Both the position numbers and the translations under genes were made by a program. The notes under the pieces were generated by a model. It ran no database searches. It was not told the DNA's origin and was given only the letters and a program-made list of their open reading frames with translations. A stretch of 64,000 nt of DNA from a virus: IMG/VR virus record IMGVR_UViG_3300025168_000034, positions 1-64,000 of that record, one strand, 5' to 3'. Numbering within the stretch: position 1 is the first letter of the stretch; the number at the start of each line of letters is the position of its first letter. Shown here one piece after another: positions 8,609 through 64,000 of this stretch.

Positions 8609-9139
8609 TTATGCCTTAACTGTTTTTATTATAATGTCAGGGTATTTGTCTTGAAGCTTGGCGACTGCATCTACATTCTTCTGTGAATCATCAATAAAGA
8701 ATATCTTGTTGTATCCTTTCTTGATTTCATTTTCAATGTATTGAGCTTTTTTTTGCGGGTTAGCATCGCCTACTGGTATTATGTATGGATCAATGTTGTG
8801 CTGTGTCTTGAAGAAGTGTTTCATTGGATATCCTTGTGCACGTGCTGTGAGTATGGTTACTTTGTTTTGTGCATTAGCCATAGCTTTCTTCAACATCTTC
8901 ATGTTACGATCAATAGTCTGTGGATTCTTTAGCATACTGTTAAAGTCTTTGAAATCAAACTTATCTCCAGGATCCTCTTCATAGGTAGCATATTCAGCTG
9001 GATCTAGTTTTAGTTTGGTGCCATCTGATTTTGTCACATATATGAATGCTTCGGATGTAGCTAATGTGTCATCAAAGTCAAATATGACAAGTCGTTTGCC
9101 AAGCTGCTTTTCATTTAGTATTTCTGCTAGTTTGATCAT
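8609..9139 (-). CDS. HAD-superfamily phosphatase with MIKLAEILNE leader
   Basis: motif I FDFDDT, motif II ILTAR, motif III K, motif IV FIDDS. Confidence 0.85.
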   Translation of the reverse strand: MIKLAEILNEKQLGKRLVIFDFDDTLATSEAFIYVTKSDGTKLKLDPAEYATYEEDPGDKFDFKDFNSMLKNPQTIDRNMKMLKKAMANAQNKVTILTARAQGYPMKHFFKTQHNIDPYIIPVGDANPQKKAQYIENEIKKGYNKIFFIDDSQKNVDAVAKLQDKYPDIIIKTVKA

Positions 9140-9381
9140 TTTAATCTAAAAAATTCTTCTGGTTTAACATTGCCGTCAATTAATGGAGAATACTTCCACG
9201 CAATAGACATAGCTTTCTTCAGAGCTGTAAGTTCCTTTTTAACCTTTGGATAGTCAGCTGGGTCACCAATTTTCTTTTTTAGATAGGCATCTTCGAGCCA
9301 TTCATAAGTTGTATTTACTGTACCAAAGTCTTTTGGATTGTAGTTCGTGCTTTCGTTCAATATATCTTTTAATTTAATCAT
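9136..9381 (-). CDS. small leader-bearing protein (MIKLKDILNE)
   Basis: shared leader; ATGA overlaps on both sides. Confidence 0.75.
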   Translation of the reverse strand: MIKLKDILNESTNYNPKDFGTVNTTYEWLEDAYLKKKIGDPADYPKVKKELTALKKAMSIAWKYSPLIDGNVKPEEFFRLK

Positions 9382-10460
9382 CCTTTCTTCCAGCCTCCTC
9401 CAGCTGCTTTATATTTTTTAGCTGCCCATCCATTAGCATACGCAGATGGATACACATCAAATTTCTTTTTAGCTTGCGACTTGTAGTAGGACCATTTCGA
9501 CGGATCGGTTGGTATGTTCTTCTCTAAAAACAACTCAAGCTTTTCAGTTACTTTTGTTTTCACGTTTATTGGTTTATTTCCCTGTCCTGGTTGTTTCTTT
9601 CCTCCCTTACCAGCTTTGTTTTGTGCTGCTCGCTTTCTACGAGTAGCTGATTCTTTCTCTTTCTTACTCATGCCTCTTGCTTTAGCAGCAGGAACACATT
9701 TAGCATATCCTCTCTTCTTACCACTTGTTCCACATTCTGGATGTTTACCGGACTTGTCCTTCTTTCCAATGTTGACCCACTTCTGTTTGAACCACTTACG
9801 AAGATCTTCTGATACGTCTTGCTTTTTGAGCTTATCTCTGTTAGCTTTAGCCCAATCCATCCATATACTCTTGATACGTGACCAATCAGCTTTCTCTGTA
9901 CCTTTTTTGCCAGAGTTTTCAAAGTTCTTAATATTTTCTGTATGCCACTCTTCCATAGCCTGATCGAGTGTTATACTCTTATGCACTGCTCGTGTCACAA
10001 GTCCTTGCACATAGGCAGGAATCTCATCAGCTTGTGTGAGATAGTTTTCATATGTGTCGTAGTCTTGATTAGGATCGTGCGCAACAATAAACATATCATC
10101 AAAGCTTTGCTGACCGATATGTTCTAATTCATGTCTCAATGTTTCGTATACCTCTGCTTCTAATCCACTTAATGCTTGAGGAAACTCAGTAGGCTTATAC
10201 TGTACAACTATGTTTAAATCACCTGGCATGTCTACAGTACCACCTTCACCATAGGCTGTTATATCGTAAGCATAATCTAAATTTGGTCGTTCTTTATAGG
10301 ATATTTCTAAGTCAAATGCTCCTCGCTCTTTTCCACGATCTAGGATATAAAGTTCATCATAGTTTTTGAAAGATCCAATTGTTGGTTTGAGTGCTTTAAA
10401 CAATCCTTCAGCTGCTTGATCTAGCTCATTTTCTAACAATATATTTTTTAGCTTCATCAT
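9378..10460 (-). CDS. leader-bearing modular protein: HExxH zincin-like domain plus two basic C-terminal modules
   Basis: MMKLKNILLE; LRHELEH...DEIPAY; then EDLRKWF...CVP and EKNIPTDPSKW...YPSAYAN modules. Confidence 0.75.
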   Translation of the reverse strand: MMKLKNILLENELDQAAEGLFKALKPTIGSFKNYDELYILDRGKERGAFDLEISYKERPNLDYAYDITAYGEGGTVDMPGDLNIVVQYKPTEFPQALSGLEAEVYETLRHELEHIGQQSFDDMFIVAHDPNQDYDTYENYLTQADEIPAYVQGLVTRAVHKSITLDQAMEEWHTENIKNFENSGKKGTEKADWSRIKSIWMDWAKANRDKLKKQDVSEDLRKWFKQKWVNIGKKDKSGKHPECGTSGKKRGYAKCVPAAKARGMSKKEKESATRRKRAAQNKAGKGGKKQPGQGNKPINVKTKVTEKLELFLEKNIPTDPSKWSYYKSQAKKKFDVYPSAYANGWAAKKYKAAGGGWKKG

Positions 10461-11215
10461 TTCTTTTTTCCACTTTTCATGTTAGCACACCAGTGGTACA
10501 TCTTTCCCTTCTCGCCTCCATGCTTCTTAGCTCTAGCTCGTAGATCAGTTACCGATCCTTTGCAGCTAGCTCCTGCACGTTTAACTCTACCTGGACTACT
10601 CTTAGCTTTCTCATTAAGTCCAAGTTTTGATAACACTCTTTGAAAGAAGCTTTTGACTTCTTTTGGTGGTATTGGATCACCATTCCCATCTATAGTGTTG
10701 ATCTTAATATTCTTCTCTTTGCACAACTTTATGCAATCTTTCATGTCTAAGTAATACAGCTTATCATTAGTCCACTCCTTTTGATCTTTATACTCTATGA
10801 TAATGTCAAAGCTTATTACATATTTGCTAAGTAGCACATCAAATTTCTTTTTAGACACAATACGCTCTTCTGCTTCAAAATTCTGCTTTCCTGCCTTTGT
10901 AAGGCTTCCCTTCTCAAATCCTTTTTGAGCATATGGTTTAATAGAAAATTCATTACTCATCTTATTTCCATCAAAAGTAAACCTACATGGAATATTTGAA
11001 CCAACCTGTGTTAAGAATCTCGACTCTTTGTGAAAGTTTTTATCACGAGTGAATGATATTGCATAAAAAGGATCATCCAAAGAACCTAATGCTCCACCTT
11101 CATCACTTTTAAGTTTCCCTGACTTGACAATGTCTATAGCTCTAGAGTAGCTGGTATAGTGGTATATGATTCCTACTTGCTTAGCTTCAAATAATATGTC
11201 TTTAAGCTTAATCAT
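10457..11215 (-). CDS. leader-bearing putative ADP-ribosyltransferase-fold protein plus basic C-terminal module
   Basis: MIKLKDILFE; IYHYT...ISFTR...EAEER (H, S-x-T, ExE pattern). Confidence 0.6.
   Translation of the reverse strand: MIKLKDILFEAKQVGIIYHYTSYSRAIDIVKSGKLKSDEGGALGSLDDPFYAISFTRDKNFHKESRFLTQVGSNIPCRFTFDGNKMSNEFSIKPYAQKGFEKGSLTKAGKQNFEAEERIVSKKKFDVLLSKYVISFDIIIEYKDQKEWTNDKLYYLDMKDCIKLCKEKNIKINTIDGNGDPIPPKEVKSFFQRVLSKLGLNEKAKSSPGRVKRAGASCKGSVTDLRARAKKHGGEKGKMYHWCANMKSGKKK
11182..11215 (-). repeat. 34-bp gene-start repeat, copy 1
   Basis: tagcttcaaataatatgtctttaagcttaatcat; 33/34 identical to 11604-11637. Confidence 0.9.
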
Positions 11216-11637
11216 ATTCTATTTATTTTCATATAGTAGATGCCATCCTTCTCTCCTAGGACTTCTCCACCTAACTTCTTCCAGAAGCCTATTGCTCCGT
11301 CTGGGCCAGCTGTTGTGTATAGTGTTATGTGTTGTGTGTTTGGACTATCTTTGAAGATCTTCTGTATCACTTGTTTTCCTATACCTTGTCTGTATTGCAT
11401 TATTGCCATCCCGCCATACATGAATATTGAGTTGGGTGATGATGGTCCCTTGCCTTTCTGCTTGATTCGGTCCATCGGATCAAACGGTATAGTTCCTGTG
11501 TCTTCTATATGAAATACTCCGACCTTTTGACGTCCTGAGAATACGAAATGAGCTCCAGTACCTAACTCTTTCTTTTTAGTGGTATCGTTCTTGTAGCTGA
11601 TCGTAGCTTCAAATAATATGTCTTTAAGCTTGATCAT
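11212..11637 (-). CDS. leader-bearing GNAT acetyltransferase
   Basis: start re-assigned to MIKLKDILFE; acetyl-CoA motif QYRQGIGK and AIGFWKKLG. Confidence 0.8.
   Translation of the reverse strand: MIKLKDILFEATISYKNDTTKKKELGTGAHFVFSGRQKVGVFHIEDTGTIPFDPMDRIKQKGKGPSSPNSIFMYGGMAIMQYRQGIGKQVIQKIFKDSPNTQHITLYTTAGPDGAIGFWKKLGGEVLGEKDGIYYMKINRI
11604..11637 (-). repeat. 34-bp gene-start repeat, copy 2
   Basis: tagcttcaaataatatgtctttaagcttgatcat. Confidence 0.9.
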
Positions 11638-12208
11638 TAGGATTCTCAAATTTTGGTTGAATAAGAAAGTAGTCGTTGAATACTCTCACTCCATATGGCT
11701 TACTAAGTTTTGGTAGATTCTTTTTAATGAATGCTAGATATAGTTTACCTCTTCTGGTATCCACACCATCTGTTGAATCCACATCATCATCACCACCATC
11801 TAATGATTTTATAGGAGCTACTTCTAGGTTATGTATATACCAATGCTCTTGCCATTCTTCTATGAAATCAAACACAATGTCTTTTATTGTTGACATCACT
11901 CGGTATTGTTCTCCTAGGTTTGTGTCATCTAAACTAAACCCACCTCCTGGTGTCTTCACATGAAAATCTACTTCTGATTGGATTGTTCCGGGAGTGCGCA
12001 TCACATCAAGATCAATACTGACGACATACTGAGTTTGTTTATCTGTAGTGAATTCATACTCAATCATGTTAGCATCATATGATTCATACGGCATGTTAGA
12101 ATCACTACCTTTATACTCTTCTGCAGATTTTCCAAGAGTTCGTTTAAATGCAAATGGCTTTGCAGACGCATCACCTATCTCATATAATATGTCTTTAAGC
12201 TTTATCAT
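11624..12208 (-). CDS. leader-bearing protein of unknown function (paralog of the C-terminal domain of the 12205-13164 gene)
   Basis: MIKLKDILYE-IGDASAKPF; YEFTTDK, YRVMSTI and RRGKLY align with 12205-13164. Confidence 0.75.
   Translation of the reverse strand: MIKLKDILYEIGDASAKPFAFKRTLGKSAEEYKGSDSNMPYESYDANMIEYEFTTDKQTQYVVSIDLDVMRTPGTIQSEVDFHVKTPGGGFSLDDTNLGEQYRVMSTIKDIVFDFIEEWQEHWYIHNLEVAPIKSLDGGDDDVDSTDGVDTRRGKLYLAFIKKNLPKLSKPYGVRVFNDYFLIQPKFENPNDQA
12184..12208 (-). repeat. gene-start repeat, copy 3 (25 bp core)
   Basis: ataatatgtctttaagctttatcat, 24/25 identical to copies 1 and 2. Confidence 0.85.
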
Positions 12209-13164
12209 GGTAAGTGTATTACGTAAGCATCACCTTGAGCTCCAGATGGCTGTCTTTCTACTCTTGCTCCAGGCACTTGTTTTTGTATGTATGCTTTATA
12301 GAGATTTGATCTCCTACTATCTTCTTTTTCTGATCTTCCTTCCTCTTTTGTTGTGTTAAACGATATCTTTTTAGGTTCTAAAGCATGCTCCATTTCACCA
12401 TATAAATCCTTATCGTTTATGTGCATATCGAATGTTGAGTCTAAAAAGTCTTTGACAATCTCTACAACTGTAGCCATTACTCTAAATGCTCCAATTCCTG
12501 TCACTACTCCATAGTTTGCTGATTGCGATATGTTGAATGATGAGCTGCTTCCTAATGGTCCAAATGCTAGATCCCACTCATTGGTTCCTGCATGTACGAA
12601 GCTTACATAATAATCTCCTTTATCTGTTTTGAATGTATATCCAAAATCCTGACTATCTGCAGCTGGATGCTCTTCGTGATACTGCCATGGGAATGCTTTT
12701 GCAGATCCATCACCTATCTCTCTCAACATAGGCATCAGCTTAGCCATATCTGCAGAGTCTGTTGGCATCTCTTCTTTTCCTACTTCCTTTTCATCAGTGG
12801 GAATGTCTTCATACATGCTTATGGTATCTCCTGACATCTCCCAAGGACCCCAGTGCTTTGCTTTGAGTATCCATTTTAGTGATTCATCTGTATCGTAGTA
12901 CTTATTATCTTCCTTACGAACACCTCCGATAGCATAGTATAAATCTTTAGGGATTTCTAACTCTCTTCCATTAGAATGATCTAATACTGTGTCGTTTGTT
13001 TCTACCCAAGCATGACCAAATCTCTTACCTTCCAATGCTCCTTGTCCATTCACCATTCCATGTACTAACGTATGACCATCACGTAATTTTGTCATAAGTC
13101 TGCCAGCTGCTTGATAGCAATCTCCTTTTGCAACTTCTAGTAATATGTTGTTAAGTTTAATCAT
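12205..13164 (-). CDS. leader-bearing two-domain protein: transglutaminase/papain-like Cys-His-Asp domain plus unknown domain
   Basis: MIKLNNILLE; GDCY...GHAWVE...VLD triad pattern; second domain starts at PMLRE-IGDGSAKAF. Confidence 0.7.
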   Translation of the reverse strand: MIKLNNILLEVAKGDCYQAAGRLMTKLRDGHTLVHGMVNGQGALEGKRFGHAWVETNDTVLDHSNGRELEIPKDLYYAIGGVRKEDNKYYDTDESLKWILKAKHWGPWEMSGDTISMYEDIPTDEKEVGKEEMPTDSADMAKLMPMLREIGDGSAKAFPWQYHEEHPAADSQDFGYTFKTDKGDYYVSFVHAGTNEWDLAFGPLGSSSSFNISQSANYGVVTGIGAFRVMATVVEIVKDFLDSTFDMHINDKDLYGEMEHALEPKKISFNTTKEEGRSEKEDSRRSNLYKAYIQKQVPGARVERQPSGAQGDAYVIHLP

Positions 13165-13343
13165 TCAAATTTTCTTCTATGCTTTGCACGTTGATCTTCT
13201 AACACATATTCAACTACATCTCTTTTACCGCAATGTGGACAATTCAAATGTTCAATATCTTCAGCTTCATTAATCTTCCACTCTCCTTTACAAGAGCTGC
13301 ATTTATAAATGTATGTGTGTCGGATAAATACTTTGTGACTCAT
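13161..13343 (-). CDS. small zinc-ribbon protein
   Basis: CSSC...CPHC; start re-assigned to MSHKVF (ATGA overlap with an upstream 18-aa ORF). Confidence 0.7.
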   Translation of the reverse strand: MSHKVFIRHTYIYKCSSCKGEWKINEAEDIEHLNCPHCGKRDVVEYVLEDQRAKHRRKFE

Positions 13344-13392
13344 ATTGCTGTATCGGGATACCAATCTTCGTCATCCCATTCGTTTGGTTGTT

Positions 13393-13866
13393 TCATTTTA
13401 TTGGTCCCCCTCCGACCCAAGCATCACAAGTTCTAGCTCCTGCACACTTAAACCAAAAGAATTCACAAAAACCTATATTTGCATTTTTAACTATTGTCTT
13501 ACCATCTGTTCCAATGGCTTTTTCAATCTTAGCAAGTGTAGCTTTCTTCTGATCAAATGCTCCACAATTACCACACCTTGATTGTTTAGCAGCCTCTACT
13601 GTGGTATTCCATAGCTCAGCTTTGTCTTCCCAAAAAGGTTTAGATCCTTTCTCGTCGTCTGGATTAAGTGGTCCATAGCTGTATTCTTTAACTGTACGAT
13701 TTCTGTTTAGAGTATTGAGATCTAAATCAGTAATTGAATCCTCAGGCTTGCCATCTTTGTTACCAATCTCCTTTTCTTTTTTTAAAGCAGCAGGAGTATT
13801 GTATCCATCATAATCTGATAGCTTTCCTTCAAGGACAATATCTTTTACTATTCCTTTAAGTTTCAT
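13393..13866 (-). CDS. leader-bearing Cys-rich protein
   Basis: MKLKGIVKDIVLE; CGNC...GFC...KCAGARTCDAW metal-binding pattern. Confidence 0.75.
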   Translation of the reverse strand: MKLKGIVKDIVLEGKLSDYDGYNTPAALKKEKEIGNKDGKPEDSITDLDLNTLNRNRTVKEYSYGPLNPDDEKGSKPFWEDKAELWNTTVEAAKQSRCGNCGAFDQKKATLAKIEKAIGTDGKTIVKNANIGFCEFFWFKCAGARTCDAWVGGGPIK

Positions 13867-14438
13867 CAGAATTTACCTATCATTATTTTAGTTACTGGCT
13901 TTCCGTTAATTTGTCTTGTGTACCATCCATTGCCCGGCGCTTTGCCTTTAGGATGTTTTCCATGCCATGTTGTTTCTTGAGACCTTCTATCACCTAATAC
14001 TTTACGTACTTGTGCTTCATCGTCTACAGTTGGCACTCCACCTTTTCCTACAAATGAATCATATGCAGGTCCTGATACTTCTACATAGTTTCCAGGAGTT
14101 TTAAGTTCAGCTGATTTCCTTTGTAGGAGATTCTTGATATTCCCTCGTTCACCATCGTGTCCCATTCCAGTATGTTTAACACCGAATGGAGTCTTTTTTC
14201 CAAAGTAAACTACATCAATTTCAGGATCTGCATCTATATCAGCAACTCTCCAGAATTTGAGATTTGGATCTTTCATATCTTCTGGCTTCTTGTACTTGAG
14301 ATGTCCGCCAATATTAGCATAGGCATTTGCAACAAGATTATAGAGATCTTGTTTGAGATCATCTACATCTGCTGGAGAAGGAGTTACGTATTTACCTTTT
14401 GGTAAATCTAATTCCTTTAGAATATCTTTTAACTTCAT
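13866..14438 (-). CDS. leader-bearing protein of unknown function (first gene of the operon)
   Basis: MKLKDILKE; ATG lies 3 nt after the GACTATTTATA motif. Confidence 0.75.
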   Translation of the reverse strand: MKLKDILKELDLPKGKYVTPSPADVDDLKQDLYNLVANAYANIGGHLKYKKPEDMKDPNLKFWRVADIDADPEIDVVYFGKKTPFGVKHTGMGHDGERGNIKNLLQRKSAELKTPGNYVEVSGPAYDSFVGKGGVPTVDDEAQVRKVLGDRRSQETTWHGKHPKGKAPGNGWYTRQINGKPVTKIMIGKF

Positions 14439-14440
14439 AC

Positions 14441-14902
14441 TTATAAATAGTCTTCAAAAATCTTTATAGGAGTTCTGTGACCGTGATCTTTCAAGTGGTA
14501 ACGAAGCTGACCTTTCTTGATGCTCTTTCTGAGTAGCTTAGCTGTCTCAGTAGGATCAATCACATCATCTTCACTTCCATTAATCATCACACCGACCACT
14601 TCATTAGGTCCTTCGTAGACTCCCTCAGGCTCAAACTTTCGACTATGGAGAGCAGGATTAAGAAGCACAACTGGTGTCTTTGTAAAAGTAGCAATCATGT
14701 AAGCAAAATAGCCTCCCATACTACTACCAATAATAATATCAGGCTCAAATCCTCGAACCAAATCTAACATCTGTTGAAACAACTTAGGATTGTGATAGTC
14801 CATTTCTGGAGCAATCACCTCATACTTGCTAGCAAGGAAGTCAACCTTTGGCCCTCCTTGCCCACTCTCTAAACCGTGAAAATAAATTACTTTTTGTTTC
14901 AT
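14441..14902 (-). CDS. YqiA-like alpha/beta hydrolase (esterase)
   Basis: YFHGLES, nucleophile elbow GSSMGG, LLNPA, DDVI, GH. Confidence 0.85.
   Translation of the reverse strand: MKQKVIYFHGLESGQGGPKVDFLASKYEVIAPEMDYHNPKLFQQMLDLVRGFEPDIIIGSSMGGYFAYMIATFTKTPVVLLNPALHSRKFEPEGVYEGPNEVVGVMINGSEDDVIDPTETAKLLRKSIKKGQLRYHLKDHGHRTPIKIFEDYL
14442..14452 (-). promoter_or_regulatory. putative late promoter GACTATTTATA (class C)
   Basis: recurs just upstream of starts at 15903, 17343, 44506, 49373, 57219 and 57316, with variants at 20727 and 50517. Confidence 0.65.
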
Positions 14903-15898: not shown

Positions 15899-15919
15899 CT
15901 TATATAAATAGGGGGGAAA

Positions 15920-17339: not shown

Positions 17340-17359
17340 AATTATAAATAGTCAAATAA

Positions 17360-43669: not shown

Positions 43670-44113
43670 CTAATTAACTATTGTAATTTTTACCATTTGG
43701 CTACCTGACATCTTTTGCAACATCTTGATAGCAGCTCTAGCTTTGAGAGTCTTCTCTTGTGCCATATTCTTGGCAGTTGTCATTGCTTGAGCTTCTCCTA
43801 TACTTTTAGAGTTTTTTACAAGTGCATCAACCCACGATTGTGCATCTCTATCTTGAAAACCTCCTAGACCAAAACTACCATCACGCATACTACTCATGGG
43901 TGGTGATTTAGGTACATAGTCTTGTTTAAGAGCATCGTATCTGAACATTTTTTGTGAGACTCCTTGGAATCGTTTTTCATTTACAATTTTGATTAGTTGT
44001 CCTTTTGGAAATGTCATTCTCCATGCACCTCCTCCAATTTCAAATCTGTTAGTGACTTCAAAATAACCCTCAGGCCATTCAACAGCTTCGTTTAGTAAAT
44101 TCTTTAGTTTCAT
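43670..44113 (-). CDS. leader-bearing protein (MKLKNLLNE)
   Basis: same leader as the 8609-14438 operon. Confidence 0.7.
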   Translation of the reverse strand: MKLKNLLNEAVEWPEGYFEVTNRFEIGGGAWRMTFPKGQLIKIVNEKRFQGVSQKMFRYDALKQDYVPKSPPMSSMRDGSFGLGGFQDRDAQSWVDALVKNSKSIGEAQAMTTAKNMAQEKTLKARAAIKMLQKMSGSQMVKITIVN

Positions 44114-44502: not shown

Positions 44503-44517
44503 GATTATAAATAGTCA

Positions 44518-57201: not shown

Positions 57202-57321
57202 ATGATCAAGTTCTTTCTTATAAATAGTCAGATGTTAATCTTCTTTGCCTAAATATTGTAAGCCAATAGCTAAAACAATAAGACATATAGCTGTTGGTAT
57301 AAGTACATCCATGCATATAAA

Positions 57322-63016: not shown

Positions 63017-63925
63017 TTATTCTTCTTTAGATACCTCAGACTCCTTTTGTGGTGCCGCTTTGTATTCTATACGTGGTAACAAGTTACTCGAAAGATTAAA
63101 TACTTCAAAGCCACACTCCTGACTCCACAGATAATCAACTATATCGTTTATGCTTCCTTTTGCGTATATATAATCTCCATTGCTTGGTGCATCTTTTTTT
63201 CCAGCGTCACACGCTATAAAGCCTACAAATTTACTCTTTAAGCCATTGTAGTACTTGATTAAGTTTCCAAGACCCCAATACCTATTAACTTCTAACGGAT
63301 CTTTCCAGTTACATGTTATGTTTGATGGTGGTATCAAATTTGTAGCTTTCATCATGTCAACAACCAAAGCTTCAACCTCAGCTTCATTTCCATCTTCAGC
63401 AGCTTTAGCCAATGCAAAGGGAGCTGTTAATGATTTATCATTGTACATTATTCTAGTACCCTCCTCCAACGCATCTTCTTGCACTTTTCCACCGCTAACA
63501 GTAATGCCAATTTCGTTCAATCTTTTAATAAAATCCTGATTCGTAATGAGATTGACTCCTCCTGATGCTCCCAGCCTTGCACTCCATCCTTTAACTTCGA
63601 GTTCTCCAACTTTGTCAAGCTCTAAATCACCAGCTCCTTTTGGCTTTCTTATGTTTTGATACAATAAAGCCATCATAATCTCAGCCATTCCAACCCCTTT
63701 TACGCCCTCATCTTGTCCAGTATATTTAGACAATATATCGACCAACTCGTCAGTCATTCCAGTTTCCGCAAGGTCTTTTTTGAAGTTACCATAGTGGGAC
63801 TCTGGATTAAAATATTCTTGTTCACCCTTTCCTTTCTTATCTAAATAAGAAATAAATTTACTATACACGGAAGATGGTAGAGCTTTTAACATTTCTTGGA
63901 TTTCTAAGGATATCTTTTTTGGCAT
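63017..63925 (-). CDS. hypothetical protein, possibly PD-(D/E)XK-like (may extend beyond the window)
   Basis: GVGMAE...GDL...ELEVKG resembles a restriction-endonuclease-fold motif. Confidence 0.55.
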   Translation of the reverse strand: MPKKISLEIQEMLKALPSSVYSKFISYLDKKGKGEQEYFNPESHYGNFKKDLAETGMTDELVDILSKYTGQDEGVKGVGMAEIMMALLYQNIRKPKGAGDLELDKVGELEVKGWSARLGASGGVNLITNQDFIKRLNEIGITVSGGKVQEDALEEGTRIMYNDKSLTAPFALAKAAEDGNEAEVEALVVDMMKATNLIPPSNITCNWKDPLEVNRYWGLGNLIKYYNGLKSKFVGFIACDAGKKDAPSNGDYIYAKGSINDIVDYLWSQECGFEVFNLSSNLLPRIEYKAAPQKESEVSKEE

Positions 63926-64000
63926 GTTGTAAACTACATTACCTTTCTTATCTATTTTCTCTTTAAATCCAGTTAGTTTAAATGTCTTTTTGAGTGGATC

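Follow-up and report, generated by a model that had tools for sequence, protein, structure and literature searches.

A conserved N-terminal decapeptide as probable T4-type capsid-targeting sequence of a swappable protein set in a far-T4-like phage

Phage P1 packages into its head, and injects, a set of anti-defence proteins (the Dar proteins DarA, DarB, Hdf, and DdrB), some of which are proteolytically processed. P1 is not T4-like and, unlike in the phage described here, incorporation of the Dar proteins is hierarchical via specific Dar proteins without a common short leader. In T4-like phages one of the proteins to be considered is Alt of T4, which is an ADP-ribosyltransferase (ART). The capsid-targeting sequence (CTS) of T4 consists of the first 10 residues, with targeting dependent on residues 4 and 7 and processing by gp21, which cleaves after L/I-X-E, dependent on residues 8 and 10; these 10 residues suffice to package foreign proteins, and Alt is trimmed at both ends (PMC9026906). 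The IP loci of T-even phages are polymorphic, the IP set being composed of diverse proteins that have just the CTS in common (PMC3012670, PMC9026906). In phiKZ, 201phi2-1, and SPN3US inner-body/ejection proteins are processed by a diverged gp21 homolog (PMC9026906), and polyvalent and MuF-fused effectors have been inferred to be head-packaged and delivered with the DNA (PMC5512222, PMC9503650).

The window analysed here is the whole of a 64,000-nt stretch of DNA, positions 1–64,000 of the 165,609-bp genome of an uncultured marine, far-T4-like phage (IMGVR_UViG_3300025168_000034) whose host probably belongs to the Bacteroidota. On its minus strand, between 8609 and 14438, are found nine tightly coupled genes with related leaders, and all nine N-termini read as quoted in the initial annotation. 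Coupling is mostly by ATGA: there is a 4-nt ATGA overlap at five tagged junctions and at the junction of the Zn-ribbon ORF with g4, g1 and g2 overlap by 1 nt, and g5 and g6 by 14 nt. It should be noted, however, that the run is not a purely tagged one as had been described, since an untagged 67-aa ORF sits among the nine genes. The features are as follows (a slash in a sequence marks the position after the Glu).

14442–14452, minus strand: GACTATTTATA motif, 3 nt upstream of the ATG of g1; candidate phage promoter or start signal
13866–14438, minus strand: g1, 190 aa, leader MKLKDILKE (9 residues)
13393–13866, minus strand: g2, 157 aa, Cys-rich body, extended 13-aa leader MKLKGIVKDIVLE
13161–13364, minus strand: untagged Zn-ribbon ORF inside the run, 67 aa; sub-threshold Zn_ribbon_8 match, E 4.7e-5
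12205–13164, minus strand: g4, 319 aa, leader MIKLNNILLE; Cys/His/Asp-motif N-domain and g5-like C-domain
12718–12747, minus strand: internal tag relic in g4, MAKLMPMLRE/IGDG, residues 140–149, at the domain junction
11624–12208, minus strand: g5, 194 aa, leader MIKLKDILYE; stand-alone copy of the g4 C-domain family
11212–11637, minus strand: g6, 141 aa, leader MIKLKDILFE; probable GNAT acetyltransferase
10457–11215, minus strand: g7, 252 aa, leader MIKLKDILFE; predicted ART-fold core, LNE site, basic C-module
10460–10609, minus strand: basic C-terminal module of g7, residues 203–252; preceded by L-N-E, E202 at 10610–10612
9378–10460, minus strand: g8, 360 aa, leader MMKLKNILLE; HExxH (gluzincin-like) core and two basic C-terminal modules
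9603–9806, minus strand: basic module 1 of g8, residues 219–286; phrog_23735, E 3e-17
9396–9512, minus strand: basic module 2 of g8, DUF5872-like, residues 317–355; PF19197, E 2.4e-5 (25.3 bits, slightly below the 27.5-bit cut-off)
9136–9381, minus strand: g9, 81 aa, leader MIKLKDILNE; small basic protein, pI 9.1
8609–9139, minus strand: g10, 176 aa, leader MIKLAEILNE; HAD-superfamily phosphatase, DFDDT motif
43670–44113, minus strand: dispersed tagged gene, 147 aa, leader MKLKNLLNE
63017–64000 in the window, start at genome position 64381, minus strand: dispersed gene, 454 aa, leader MEINDILLE

Seven of the nine leaders carry L8-x9-E10, and the 9-residue leader of g1 and the 13-residue leader of g2 also end in h-x-E (h, hydrophobic). 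A motif search of the genome and its relatives, as proposed in the initial annotation, returned nine matches to KL[KNAG][DNEG]I[LV].[ED] in the six-frame translation of the genome (165,609 bp), all at array starts, and the exact back-translated tag in at least 119 viral contigs as compared with 0 for a scrambled decapeptide. The tag string was absent from the literature searched. The array is only part of the tagged set, at least five dispersed genes being headed by looser tag variants; outside the window such looser leaders are found at genome positions 111686–111985, 142909–143343, and 158124–158996. The dispersed genes at 43670–44113 and 63017–64381 have no Pfam match.

The closest likeness is to T4, where, as read from the T4 record, IPII and IPIII begin with MKTYQEFIAE and gp24 with MAKINELLRE. 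The register of the tag matches that of IPIII and gp24 (hydrophobic at 4, 7, and 8; Glu at 10), and the hydrophobic targeting residues Y4 and F7 of IPIII are matched in sequence by L4 and I7, which are conserved across 119 independent tag instances. In both systems a leader of about 10 residues with hydrophobic positions 4 and 7 and L/I-x-E at 8–10 stands on unrelated proteins, and in both the genome encodes an S77 prohead protease and a capsid protein with an aligned h-x-E site. The consensus differs, however, MIKLKDILxE versus MKTYQEFIAE, the N-terminus of gp24 being nearest to the tag, and homology to the T4 CTS cannot be established from a similarity over 10 residues.

The protease of the tagged phage is of the gp21 type (PF03420, 90.9 bits in a profile search; genome positions 101586–102200) and is accompanied by a gp23-type capsid protein and a gp20-type portal. 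At the sequence level, the capsid protein has LKE/G at the site aligned to LTE/A of T4 gp23 and a head-core ORF reads ...DILGE. In nine proteases from tag-bearing phages [IL]-x-E followed by S, A, or Q is kept near residue 20. An S77 protease is present in all nine searchable large contigs that bear the tag and also in both complete contigs of the set defined by the g7 C-module. Thus both the gp21-like protease and the tag-like cleavage motif on head proteins, which the initial annotation had suggested looking for, are there.

We consider it likely, judging from sequences, that M(I)KLKDILxE is the T4-type CTS of this lineage and that the tagged proteins form a cargo set cut by the S77 protease, packaged, and ejected, with trimming at both ends for some. 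The tag would be a 10-residue N-terminal propeptide, whose hydrophobic residues 4 and 7 would mediate docking to the prohead core as this assembles. The gp21-type (S77) protease would then cut at L8-x9-E10 during head maturation, and the mature protein would be freed inside the capsid and ejected with the DNA. The cargo set, made up of the nine-gene operon and the at least five dispersed genes, would include a nucleic-acid-branch ART-fold enzyme, a HAD phosphatase, a probable GNAT, an HExxH protein, a Cys/His/Asp-motif domain, and small basic proteins, and the cargo bodies would pass between phages as units, with the post-Glu position as their boundary.

The bodies are diverse: clustering of 175 tagged ORFs without their tag gives 88 clusters. 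This does not mean that all nine are unrelated after the Glu, as had been claimed. Indeed, the C-terminal half of g4 has a homolog in g5 (E 4e-9), and the relic MAKLMPMLRE/IGDG in g4 aligns residue-for-residue with the N-terminus of g5, MIKLKDILYE/IGDA. "Nine unrelated enzymes" is therefore overstated, because g4 and g5 share a domain and only g10 and g7 are really supported. The former matches PF11019 (DUF2608) with 34.5 bits, above the cut-off of 22.6 bits, and phrog_415, a polynucleotide kinase family (E 2.7e-9), and DFDDT can be read in its sequence as motif I (DxDx(T/V)); profile and motif point to the HAD superfamily phosphatase that had been proposed. The model of g7 (pLDDT 75) finds in Foldseek searches against the PDB Tpt1 (7yw4, E 9e-4, probability 1.00) and DarT (probability 0.92–0.97; 7yk3 and 7omw 0.97), and its core is thus predicted to have an ART fold of the Tpt1/DarT type, in agreement with the ART-like protein of the initial annotation; the Pfam match to Tox-ART-HYD1 has an E of only 0.08. 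In 25 homologs of g7, R57 is invariant and Y18, H19, T21, S54, E114, E116, and E117 are nearly so.

The other assignments are less firm. That g6 is a GNAT acetyltransferase is probable, as suggested by matches to Acetyltransf_1 (E 0.035) and to a GNAT in the PDB (E 0.32), both weak; the C-terminal half of g4 (residues 156–319) has a weak GNAT-like fold (Z 6–7.4). In the N-domain of g4, a candidate for the transglutaminase-like domain of the initial annotation, Cys, His, and Asp motifs are conserved. In g8, annotated as a zincin, eight homologs all share HExEH and, further downstream, E-x-PAY, and the HD pair is not conserved; searches of Pfam, PHROG, and PDB sequences did not match g8 to any zincin, which by its motif is a candidate. 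The g8 core also stands alone in proteins of approximately 215 aa. No Pfam or PHROG match was obtained for g1 (for which the ESM Atlas gave no lead) or g9, and no family or PDB match for g2. Tagged homologs were found for g1 in one locus (L073, 38% identity) and for g5 in two (L017 and L093). Flavobacterium phage immuto, which is in culture, has one tagged protein (gene immuto35A_41, beginning MIKLIDLLTE), and in a by-eye comparison of the unaligned sequences this protein resembles g5.

That the set is swappable, as had been proposed, is supported by natural fusions. In relatives, the g7 core is fused to the g6 body or to a g5-type body exactly at ...LNE/, and the downstream body begins at the residue that follows the leader Glu in the stand-alone gene; for example, in P0004 and P0005 the g6 body starts right after LNE/ of a g7-type core. 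The post-Glu position is thus a real module boundary, because close relatives fuse the same bodies exactly there. The families of g7, g4, and g8 carry different leaders in different phages, and, within loci, leaders are of a uniform flavour (50 of 61 versus a permutation mean of 25); the flavour tracks the phage rather than the cargo.

New here, and missed in the initial annotation, are the basic module of about 50 aa that ends g7 and the second cut-site motif before it. The module, predicted to be a two-helix hairpin, is found in 1,182 protein clusters at 50% identity and in at least 584 viral-contig stretches, and matches nothing in Pfam, in PHROG, or among cultured phages. It is preceded by the junction h-x-E/N[FY]ADGK, a V/L/I-x-E type site, in 128 of 135 cases. 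Because of this second hydrophobic-x-Glu site and the basic C-module, some of the cargo is probably trimmed at both ends, as is T4 Alt. A Pfam scan of 136 proteins that share the module found NUDIX (9), GNAT (8), ART-PolyVal (6), ParB_N (4), and others, in line with the repertoire that characterises polyvalent proteins (ART-PolyVal, ParB, NUDIX, GNAT, MPTase; PMC5512222); nucleotidyltransferase, deaminase, RegB, and EndoU cargo also occurs. This overlap with domains proposed to be virion-delivered supports the capsid-cargo reading. ART-PolyVal, NUDIX, GNAT, ParB, zincin-like HExxH, and nucleases are shared with polyvalent/MuF-fused effectors (PMC5512222, PMC9503650), but these are long single polypeptides or MuF/portal fusions, whereas here most genes are separate, each with its own tag, and the fusions are joined at prohead-protease-type sites. 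Polyvalent proteins have 2–15 effector domains per polypeptide; most members here are single-body, g4 and the relatives' fusions coming closest. In PMC9503650 a term search did not find the wording "capsid-targeting" or "N-terminal leader."

One could argue that the leader is a propeptide removed by the protease, for example, keeping the enzymes inactive in the producer, and that targeting is by the C-modules or by affinity for the core or the DNA. Such a division of labour would go with the cut-site motifs at both ends of some cargo, as in Alt, which is trimmed likewise (PMC9026906), and with a C-module that is far better conserved than the leader and common to phages with different leaders. 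It would also go with a dispersed tagged protein, ...LHELNE/C, whose weak match to an Ntn-hydrolase (AAT) would imply the need for a free N-terminal Cys. However, all nine genes keep the leader, whereas among them only g7 and g8 have basic C-terminal modules; the first 10 residues alone package foreign proteins in T4 (PMC9026906), positions 4 and 7 being hydrophobic here too; and the leader flavour follows the phage, as it should if the leader docks to a core that is specific to the lineage. We regard this alternative as unlikely.

The conserved start could also be an element of the mRNA or DNA without being a peptide address, namely an A/T-rich unstructured initiation region in an SD-less phage and/or a microhomology for cassette recombination. 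The region upstream is A-rich and without SD-like sequence, the array genes overlap by ATGA, and the fusion joints of relatives fall in leader-coding DNA. Codons 5–7 (AAA GAC ATA) are far more uniform than predicted from genome usage, Ile7 being ATA in 96% versus 42% genome-wide and Asp6 being GAC in 67% versus 27%, which indicates that gene conversion or a constraint on the DNA or RNA also plays a part. Nevertheless, in the 119 instances the amino acids stay the same although all six leucine codons occur at Leu4 as well as at Leu8, and synonymous changes are seen at Ile2, Lys3, Asp6, and Glu10; at position 9 the residue itself differs between instances, and P1' is occupied by a small residue. 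The tag is thus, by its codons, under selection as a peptide. In addition, the Glu is invariant although leader length ranges from 7 to 13 residues, h-x-E recurs at the capsid site, the protease N-terminus, and internal junctions, and within the same operon-like runs coupling extends to genes that have no tag, all of which makes a pure nucleic-acid element very improbable. That the tag sends proteins elsewhere (to the membrane, secretion, another phage-built compartment, or as a degradation mark) is favoured by none of the results and hardly credible, the leader being short, amphipathic, charged (K3, K5, D6, E10), and without a hydrophobic span, and the tag co-occurring with S77 proteases and ending in their known site motif.

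The array begins behind GACTATTTATA, as had been noted. The core TATTTATA has 36 coding-strand occurrences versus about 11 expected and stands 3–20 nt before many ATGs, including those of portal, TerL, tail tube, and adaptor, and also of RNR and PhoH. As a T4 late promoter it was rejected: the core differs from TATAAATA of T4 and is not late-only. Because TATTTATA also precedes the RNR and PhoH genes, it does not mark the array as late. Fragments at least 99% identical to all nine genes are present in RNA libraries of two studies; they give no timing and weakly support the capsid-address reading. The nearest cultured relative has just one clearly tagged gene, which counts against that reading.

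A capsid-address tag would place this phage beside others with processed head cargo. The phiKZ-type phages likewise have many head-internal proteins with propeptides that are cut C-terminal to Glu by an S77-related protease and ejected, but their motif is S/A-x-E, and a decapeptide leader common to these proteins has not been reported (PMC9026906); here the motif is L/I/V-x-E in a fixed N-terminal register. The phiKZ-type phages are also giant and have an inner body, unlike the tagged phage. As in T4, the cargo includes a predicted ART-fold enzyme and small basic proteins. Unlike in T4, there are nine genes in one operon and at least 14 per genome (versus the three IPs, IPI, IPII, and IPIII, and Alt), the cargo is mostly enzyme-sized rather than small inhibitors, a second h-x-E site is followed by a conserved basic C-module, and the lineage is a distant, far-T4 one of Bacteroidota type, nearly all from metagenomes and known here from sequence. 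The modular address tag is supported by the S77 protease, LKE/G, the T4 register, selection on the peptide, the tracking of leaders with phages, and the fusions at E/, from which we infer targeting, cleavage, loading into the virion, injection, and any action on the host. Since the tag resembles the load-then-cut signal of T4, a swappable set of enzymes is probably carried in the head of this phage and injected along with its DNA.

The phage genome from IMG/VR (165,609 bp, 98% complete) encodes a T4-like head module with a gp23-type major capsid protein, a gp20-type portal and a Peptidase_S77 (gp21-type) prohead protease, the enzyme for which the initial annotation had proposed to search. In a comparison of capsid proteins, Flavobacterium phage vB_FspM_immuto (52% identity), Microcystis phage Mel-JY01 and Rhodothermus phage RM378 came closest among cultured phages. 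Judged by these sequences the phage belongs to a distant "far-T4" branch, and its host is probably a member of the Bacteroidota. In blastn against cultured phages the region gave three short matches only (71–73% identity). Immuto carries one clearly tagged gene, immuto35A_41 (MIKLIDLLTE..., annotated hypothetical; MW353176.1, 24977–25402; locus L125, 6978–7403).

The large ORFs of the window lie on the minus strand throughout. Between 8609 and 14438 nine of them (g1, g2 and g4–g10) start with an N-terminal leader of the M(I)KLKDILxE type (the tag), exactly as previously quoted, and most neighbours in the array are joined by ATGA overlaps. In a six-frame scan of the whole genome the strict motif KL[KNAG][DNEG]I[LV].[ED] occurs nine times, each time at an array N-terminus. 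A looser scan of the whole genome for [IL][ILV]xE within the first 25 residues showed an about 3-fold N-terminal enrichment and yielded dispersed leader-bearing genes. The features concerned are:

13161–13364, minus strand: untagged Zn-ribbon ORF of 67 aa, which interrupts the tagged run
43670–44113: dispersed tagged gene, leader MKLKNLLNE (looser scan)
63017–64381: dispersed tagged gene, leader MEINDILLE (looser scan)
genome 111686–111985: dispersed tagged gene, leader MELKKLLSE (looser scan)
genome 142909–143343: dispersed tagged gene, leader MKAIDFAKLLKE (looser scan)
genome 158124–158996 (locus L137): dispersed tagged gene, leader MIKLRNLLHE (looser scan)
genome 100848–101219: head-core ORF with ...LVDILGE (looser scan)

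The product of the gene at 158124–158996 (290 aa) starts with MIKLRNLLHELNE followed directly by Cys and has a weak Pfam match to AAT, an Ntn-hydrolase family (E 4.6e-4); removal of its leader would bare an N-terminal Cys nucleophile.

The tag is widespread. Fully degenerate back-translation of MIKLKDILxE matched at least 119 IMG/VR contigs, and the same codons in scrambled order, used as control, matched none. In loci among the matches listed, the tag stands at ORF starts, repeatedly in arrays of 3 to 9 genes; locus L081, on a 296-kb contig, has nine. In the 119 distinct tag instances listed, six codons each are used for Leu4 and Leu8, and synonymous variation is also seen at Ile2, Lys3, Asp6 and Glu10; the residue at position 9 is variable (N, L, K, T, S, F, M, V), and the Glu is followed mostly by A, V, M, G, T or S. 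Because the codons vary synonymously across these instances, the tag is under selection at the peptide level. Codons 5–7 (loci L004–L122) are more uniform than genome usage: Lys5 is AAA in 114 of 119 instances (65% genome-wide), Ile7 is ATA in 114 of 119 (96% versus 42%), and Asp6 is GAC in 67% (versus 27%). On top of the peptide selection there is thus a second constraint, at the nucleotide level or possibly through gene conversion or recombination within the leader DNA; among the nine array genes the leader DNA differs at 1 to 11 of 30 positions. No paper containing the tag string was found in the literature searched, and term searches for capsid targeting or an N-terminal leader in a 2022 survey of phage NAD+/ADPr systems (PMC9503650) gave nothing.

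The principle of a capsid-targeting leader is already established for T-even phages, whose internal proteins are a highly diverse set with the capsid targeting sequence (CTS) as sole common feature (Rao and Black, 2010, PMC3012670). In T4, L/I-X-E is the motif after which gp21 cuts, the N-terminal decapeptide of the internal protein IPIII is enough for encapsidation, residues 4 and 7 of the CTS serve targeting and residues 8 and 10 processing, the internal protein Alt is trimmed at both termini, and the CTS is perhaps a general loading route for various proteins in T4-like phages (PMC9026906). The T4 record gives MKTYQEFIAE/A for IPII and IPIII (the slash marks the site after Glu), MKTFKEF... 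for IPI and MAKINELLRE/S for gp24. In length and register the CTS equals the tag (M1-I2-K3-L4-K5-D6-I7-L8-x9-E10), and the N-terminal decapeptide of gp24, a protein that loses exactly 10 residues, is identical to it at M1, K3, L8 and E10 and conservative at positions 4, 6 and 7. The same type of site, which the initial annotation had proposed to look for on head proteins, is present in the capsid protein: ...FLTE/AEIGG of T4 gp23, which is cleaved after Glu65, aligns with ...QLLKE/GSAT here and with ...QIVSE/ANVT in immuto. Moreover, in nine of nine tag-bearing phages the protease itself has [IL]-x-E followed by Ser, Ala or Gln near residue 20, which resembles the LIE-9 sequence noted in gp21 (PMC9026906). 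Among large contigs with the tag nine were searchable, and each of them has an S77 protease gene. A complex prediction of the S77 protease (9-row alignment) with residues 1–45 of g9, run without controls, scored 0.01 and speaks neither for nor against binding.

What follows the leader is modular. Without their tags, 175 tagged ORFs from loci among the matches listed fell into 88 BLAST clusters. Members of the g7 and g4 families are mostly tagged, some having other leaders such as MKIYEILNE or MKHLKSYELYE, and in the g8 family the leader is 7 to 10 residues long with an invariant Glu. Five leader flavours were distinguished: A, MIKLKDILxE; B, MRAxEFIxE; C, MKTFKEFFxE; D, MKKSELxxIVRE; and E, MKIxEIIxE. 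A single flavour was found in 50 of the 61 loci with at least two leaders (permutation mean 25, maximum 33) and in 14 of 23 loci picked not by leader but by the basic C-terminal module of g7 (C-module), the mixtures there being mostly A with D and B with E. Because of this purity, leader flavour seems to go with the phage and not with the cargo, as is expected of an address that fits the prohead core of the phage concerned. Contigs with leaders of the MRAxEFIxE and MKIxEIIxE types (loci L156, L161, L173, L190, L226, L205, L208, L214) have 105–167 kb at 29–45% estimated completeness, which implies that they come from jumbo phages of about 350 kb that use a leader flavour of their own; in 8 contigs with MRAxEF-type or related leaders S77 was not found, which at 29–45% completeness is uninformative.

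The strongest indirect evidence for a boundary after the Glu comes from natural fusions. The junction in g7 itself reads ...KLGLNE/KAKSSPGRVKR. In the proteins P0004 and P0005 of relatives the g7 core ...KLGLNE/ is followed by the body of g6, ATISYKNDTT..., just as in g6 (MIKLKDILFE/ATISYKNDTT), and in P0002 the core ...KLKLNE/ is followed by a g5-type body, IGDGSSKAF... (compare g5, MIKLKDILYE/IGDASAKPF). Our g4, with an internal MAKLMPMLRE/IGDGSAKAF, is arranged like the P0002 fusion. Since the fusions join at the post-Glu residue, cutting after Glu would give the same mature bodies, whether separate or fused. The swappable set that had been postulated is supported by these exact boundaries.

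Of the enzymes assigned at first sight, the HAD phosphatase is g10 (Pfam above cut-off, PHROG match, DFDDT motif), and the ART-like domain is found in g7, whose predicted structure has an ART fold that is closest to Tpt1 and DarT, in the branch directed at nucleic acids. The proposed GNAT is probably g6, but only weak matches point to it (PDB sequence search, E 0.32). For the proposed HExxH zincin, g8, the motif stands, HExEH and E-x-PAY being invariant in homologs, but no family or fold match was obtained and the PDB sequence search gave nothing usable. An alternative assignment of g8 as an HD-domain protein (YfbR-like, Pfam E 3.5e-4) was rejected because the HD pair varies in homologs while HExEH is kept. 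The C-terminal region of g8 (9396–9806) has two other basic modules that are portable, phrog_23735 (E 3e-17) and a DUF5872-like one; these are shared with one close homolog and absent from homologs of about 215 aa with the same HExxH core. The N-domain of g4 has conserved Cys, His and Asp motifs; its C-half and g5 show a weak GNAT-like fold (Z 6–7.4). Both fold searches with g4 were dominated by the C-terminal domain, the one row for YopQ (Z 5.8) being not interpretable. For g1, g2 and g9 no family match was found in Pfam or PHROG; g1 gave no lead in the ESM Atlas and g2 nothing usable in the PDB sequence search.

The C-module had not been recorded in the initial annotation:

10460–10609 (g7 residues 203–252; also loci L154–L233): C-module, basic, about 50 aa, PGRVKRAGASCKGSVTDLR...KMYHWCANMK...KK

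At 80–98% identity it forms the very C-terminal end of widely differing proteins with unrelated enzyme cores; within this genome it is found on g7 only. There are more than 2,400 matches in a 90%-clustered database, 1,182 clusters at 50% identity (765 with E ≤ 1e-10) and at least 584 viral-contig stretches. No match was found in Pfam or PHROGs, nor by tblastn in 50,697 cultured phage records, to which the low-complexity filter may contribute. AlphaFold models it confidently as a two-helix hairpin followed by a Lys tail, from which we infer a SAP/HeH-like, DNA-binding module; a variant without Cys exists. Directly before it, in 128 of 135 proteins, stands a hydrophobic-x-Glu site (h-x-E) continued by N-[F/Y]-A-D-G-K, P3 being V, L, I or M in 87%. 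Leaders also accompany it: among 139 full-length module-bearing representatives, h-h-x-E occurs within the first 24 residues in 70% (internal windows, 11%) and ends at residue 9 or 10 in 72, and minimal proteins consist of leader plus C-module alone. The cores include NUDIX, GNAT, ART-PolyVal, ParB, Pol-beta nucleotidyltransferase, cytidine deaminase, NT5C, RegB, EndoU, HicA, Cu/Zn SOD and sigma-70 region 4, a set that overlaps the repertoire of Iyer et al. inferred to be virion-delivered (PMC5512222, PMC9503650).

With respect to expression, GACTATTTATA lies 3 nt upstream of g1, so that the array indeed starts right behind this motif. On the coding strand of the whole genome its core TATTTATA occurs about three times as often as expected (36 against about 11), and as (c)TATTTATA(taaa) it stands 3–20 nt before many start codons that have no Shine-Dalgarno sequence, which implies very short or absent 5' leaders. 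Examples on the coding strand are:

14442–14449: TATTTATA
15903–15910: TATTTATA
17343–17350: TATTTATA
44506–44513: TATTTATA
57219–57226: TATTTATA

The motif is not a T4 late promoter, since the coding strand reads TATTTATA and the TATAAATA of T4 is depleted there (7 versus about 21 expected). It precedes the genes for portal, TerL, tail tube and adaptor and also those for RNR and PhoH, and late timing of the array can therefore not be deduced from it. Directly upstream of the array an untagged gene for a UPF0227 protein (YqiA-like alpha/beta hydrolase, 153 aa, 14441–14902) has its stop codon inside the motif. In the 119 related instances listed, no Shine-Dalgarno-like sequence was seen before the tagged genes, the upstream region being A-rich. 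For all nine genes there are contigs at ≥99% identity in the RNA libraries of two studies, a result that fits transcription of the array in the sea but from which strand, timing and transcription itself are not deducible.

Taken together, we consider it likely, on comparative grounds, that the tag belongs to a T4-type capsid targeting and propeptide system, in which a lineage-specific leader would direct shufflable cargo, enzymes and small basic proteins, into the phage head. New with respect to the T-even phages are the consensus, the array size and enzyme content, the wide occurrence in uncultured phages, the fusions at exact boundaries and the C-module. More tentatively, and with rather more doubt than confidence, the tag may be one part of a general cargo grammar, not described before, that uncultured T4-related and jumbo phages have in common and in which a lineage-specific leader ending in h-x-E, an effector body ending in h-x-E and the basic two-helix module of about 50 aa follow each other. 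The C-module, which keeps its 80–98% identity also between phages whose leaders differ, could then be a new class of protease-released internal protein or DNA tether, coupling the cargo to the packaged genome so that it exits the capsid with the DNA. If so, injected effectors would be predictable from sequence alone in metagenomes.

Only in a few model phages is it known which proteins accompany the DNA at cell entry, and these proteins act first on the host: they counter defence, seize transcription or modify nucleic acids. If the tag works like the CTS of T4, a simple rule would suffice to list the proteins injected by a large T4-related marine branch that is mostly uncultured: the genome has an S77 protease and the leader ends in h-x-E. 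Hundreds of unknown protein families would be marked in this way as candidates for early effectors or anti-defence factors. How cargo shuffles between phages is shown by the exact-boundary fusions. The C-module, with its more than 1,000 clusters, is a family that lacks annotation and whose role can be tested, and the leader could become a packaging handle for engineering phages of Bacteroidota.
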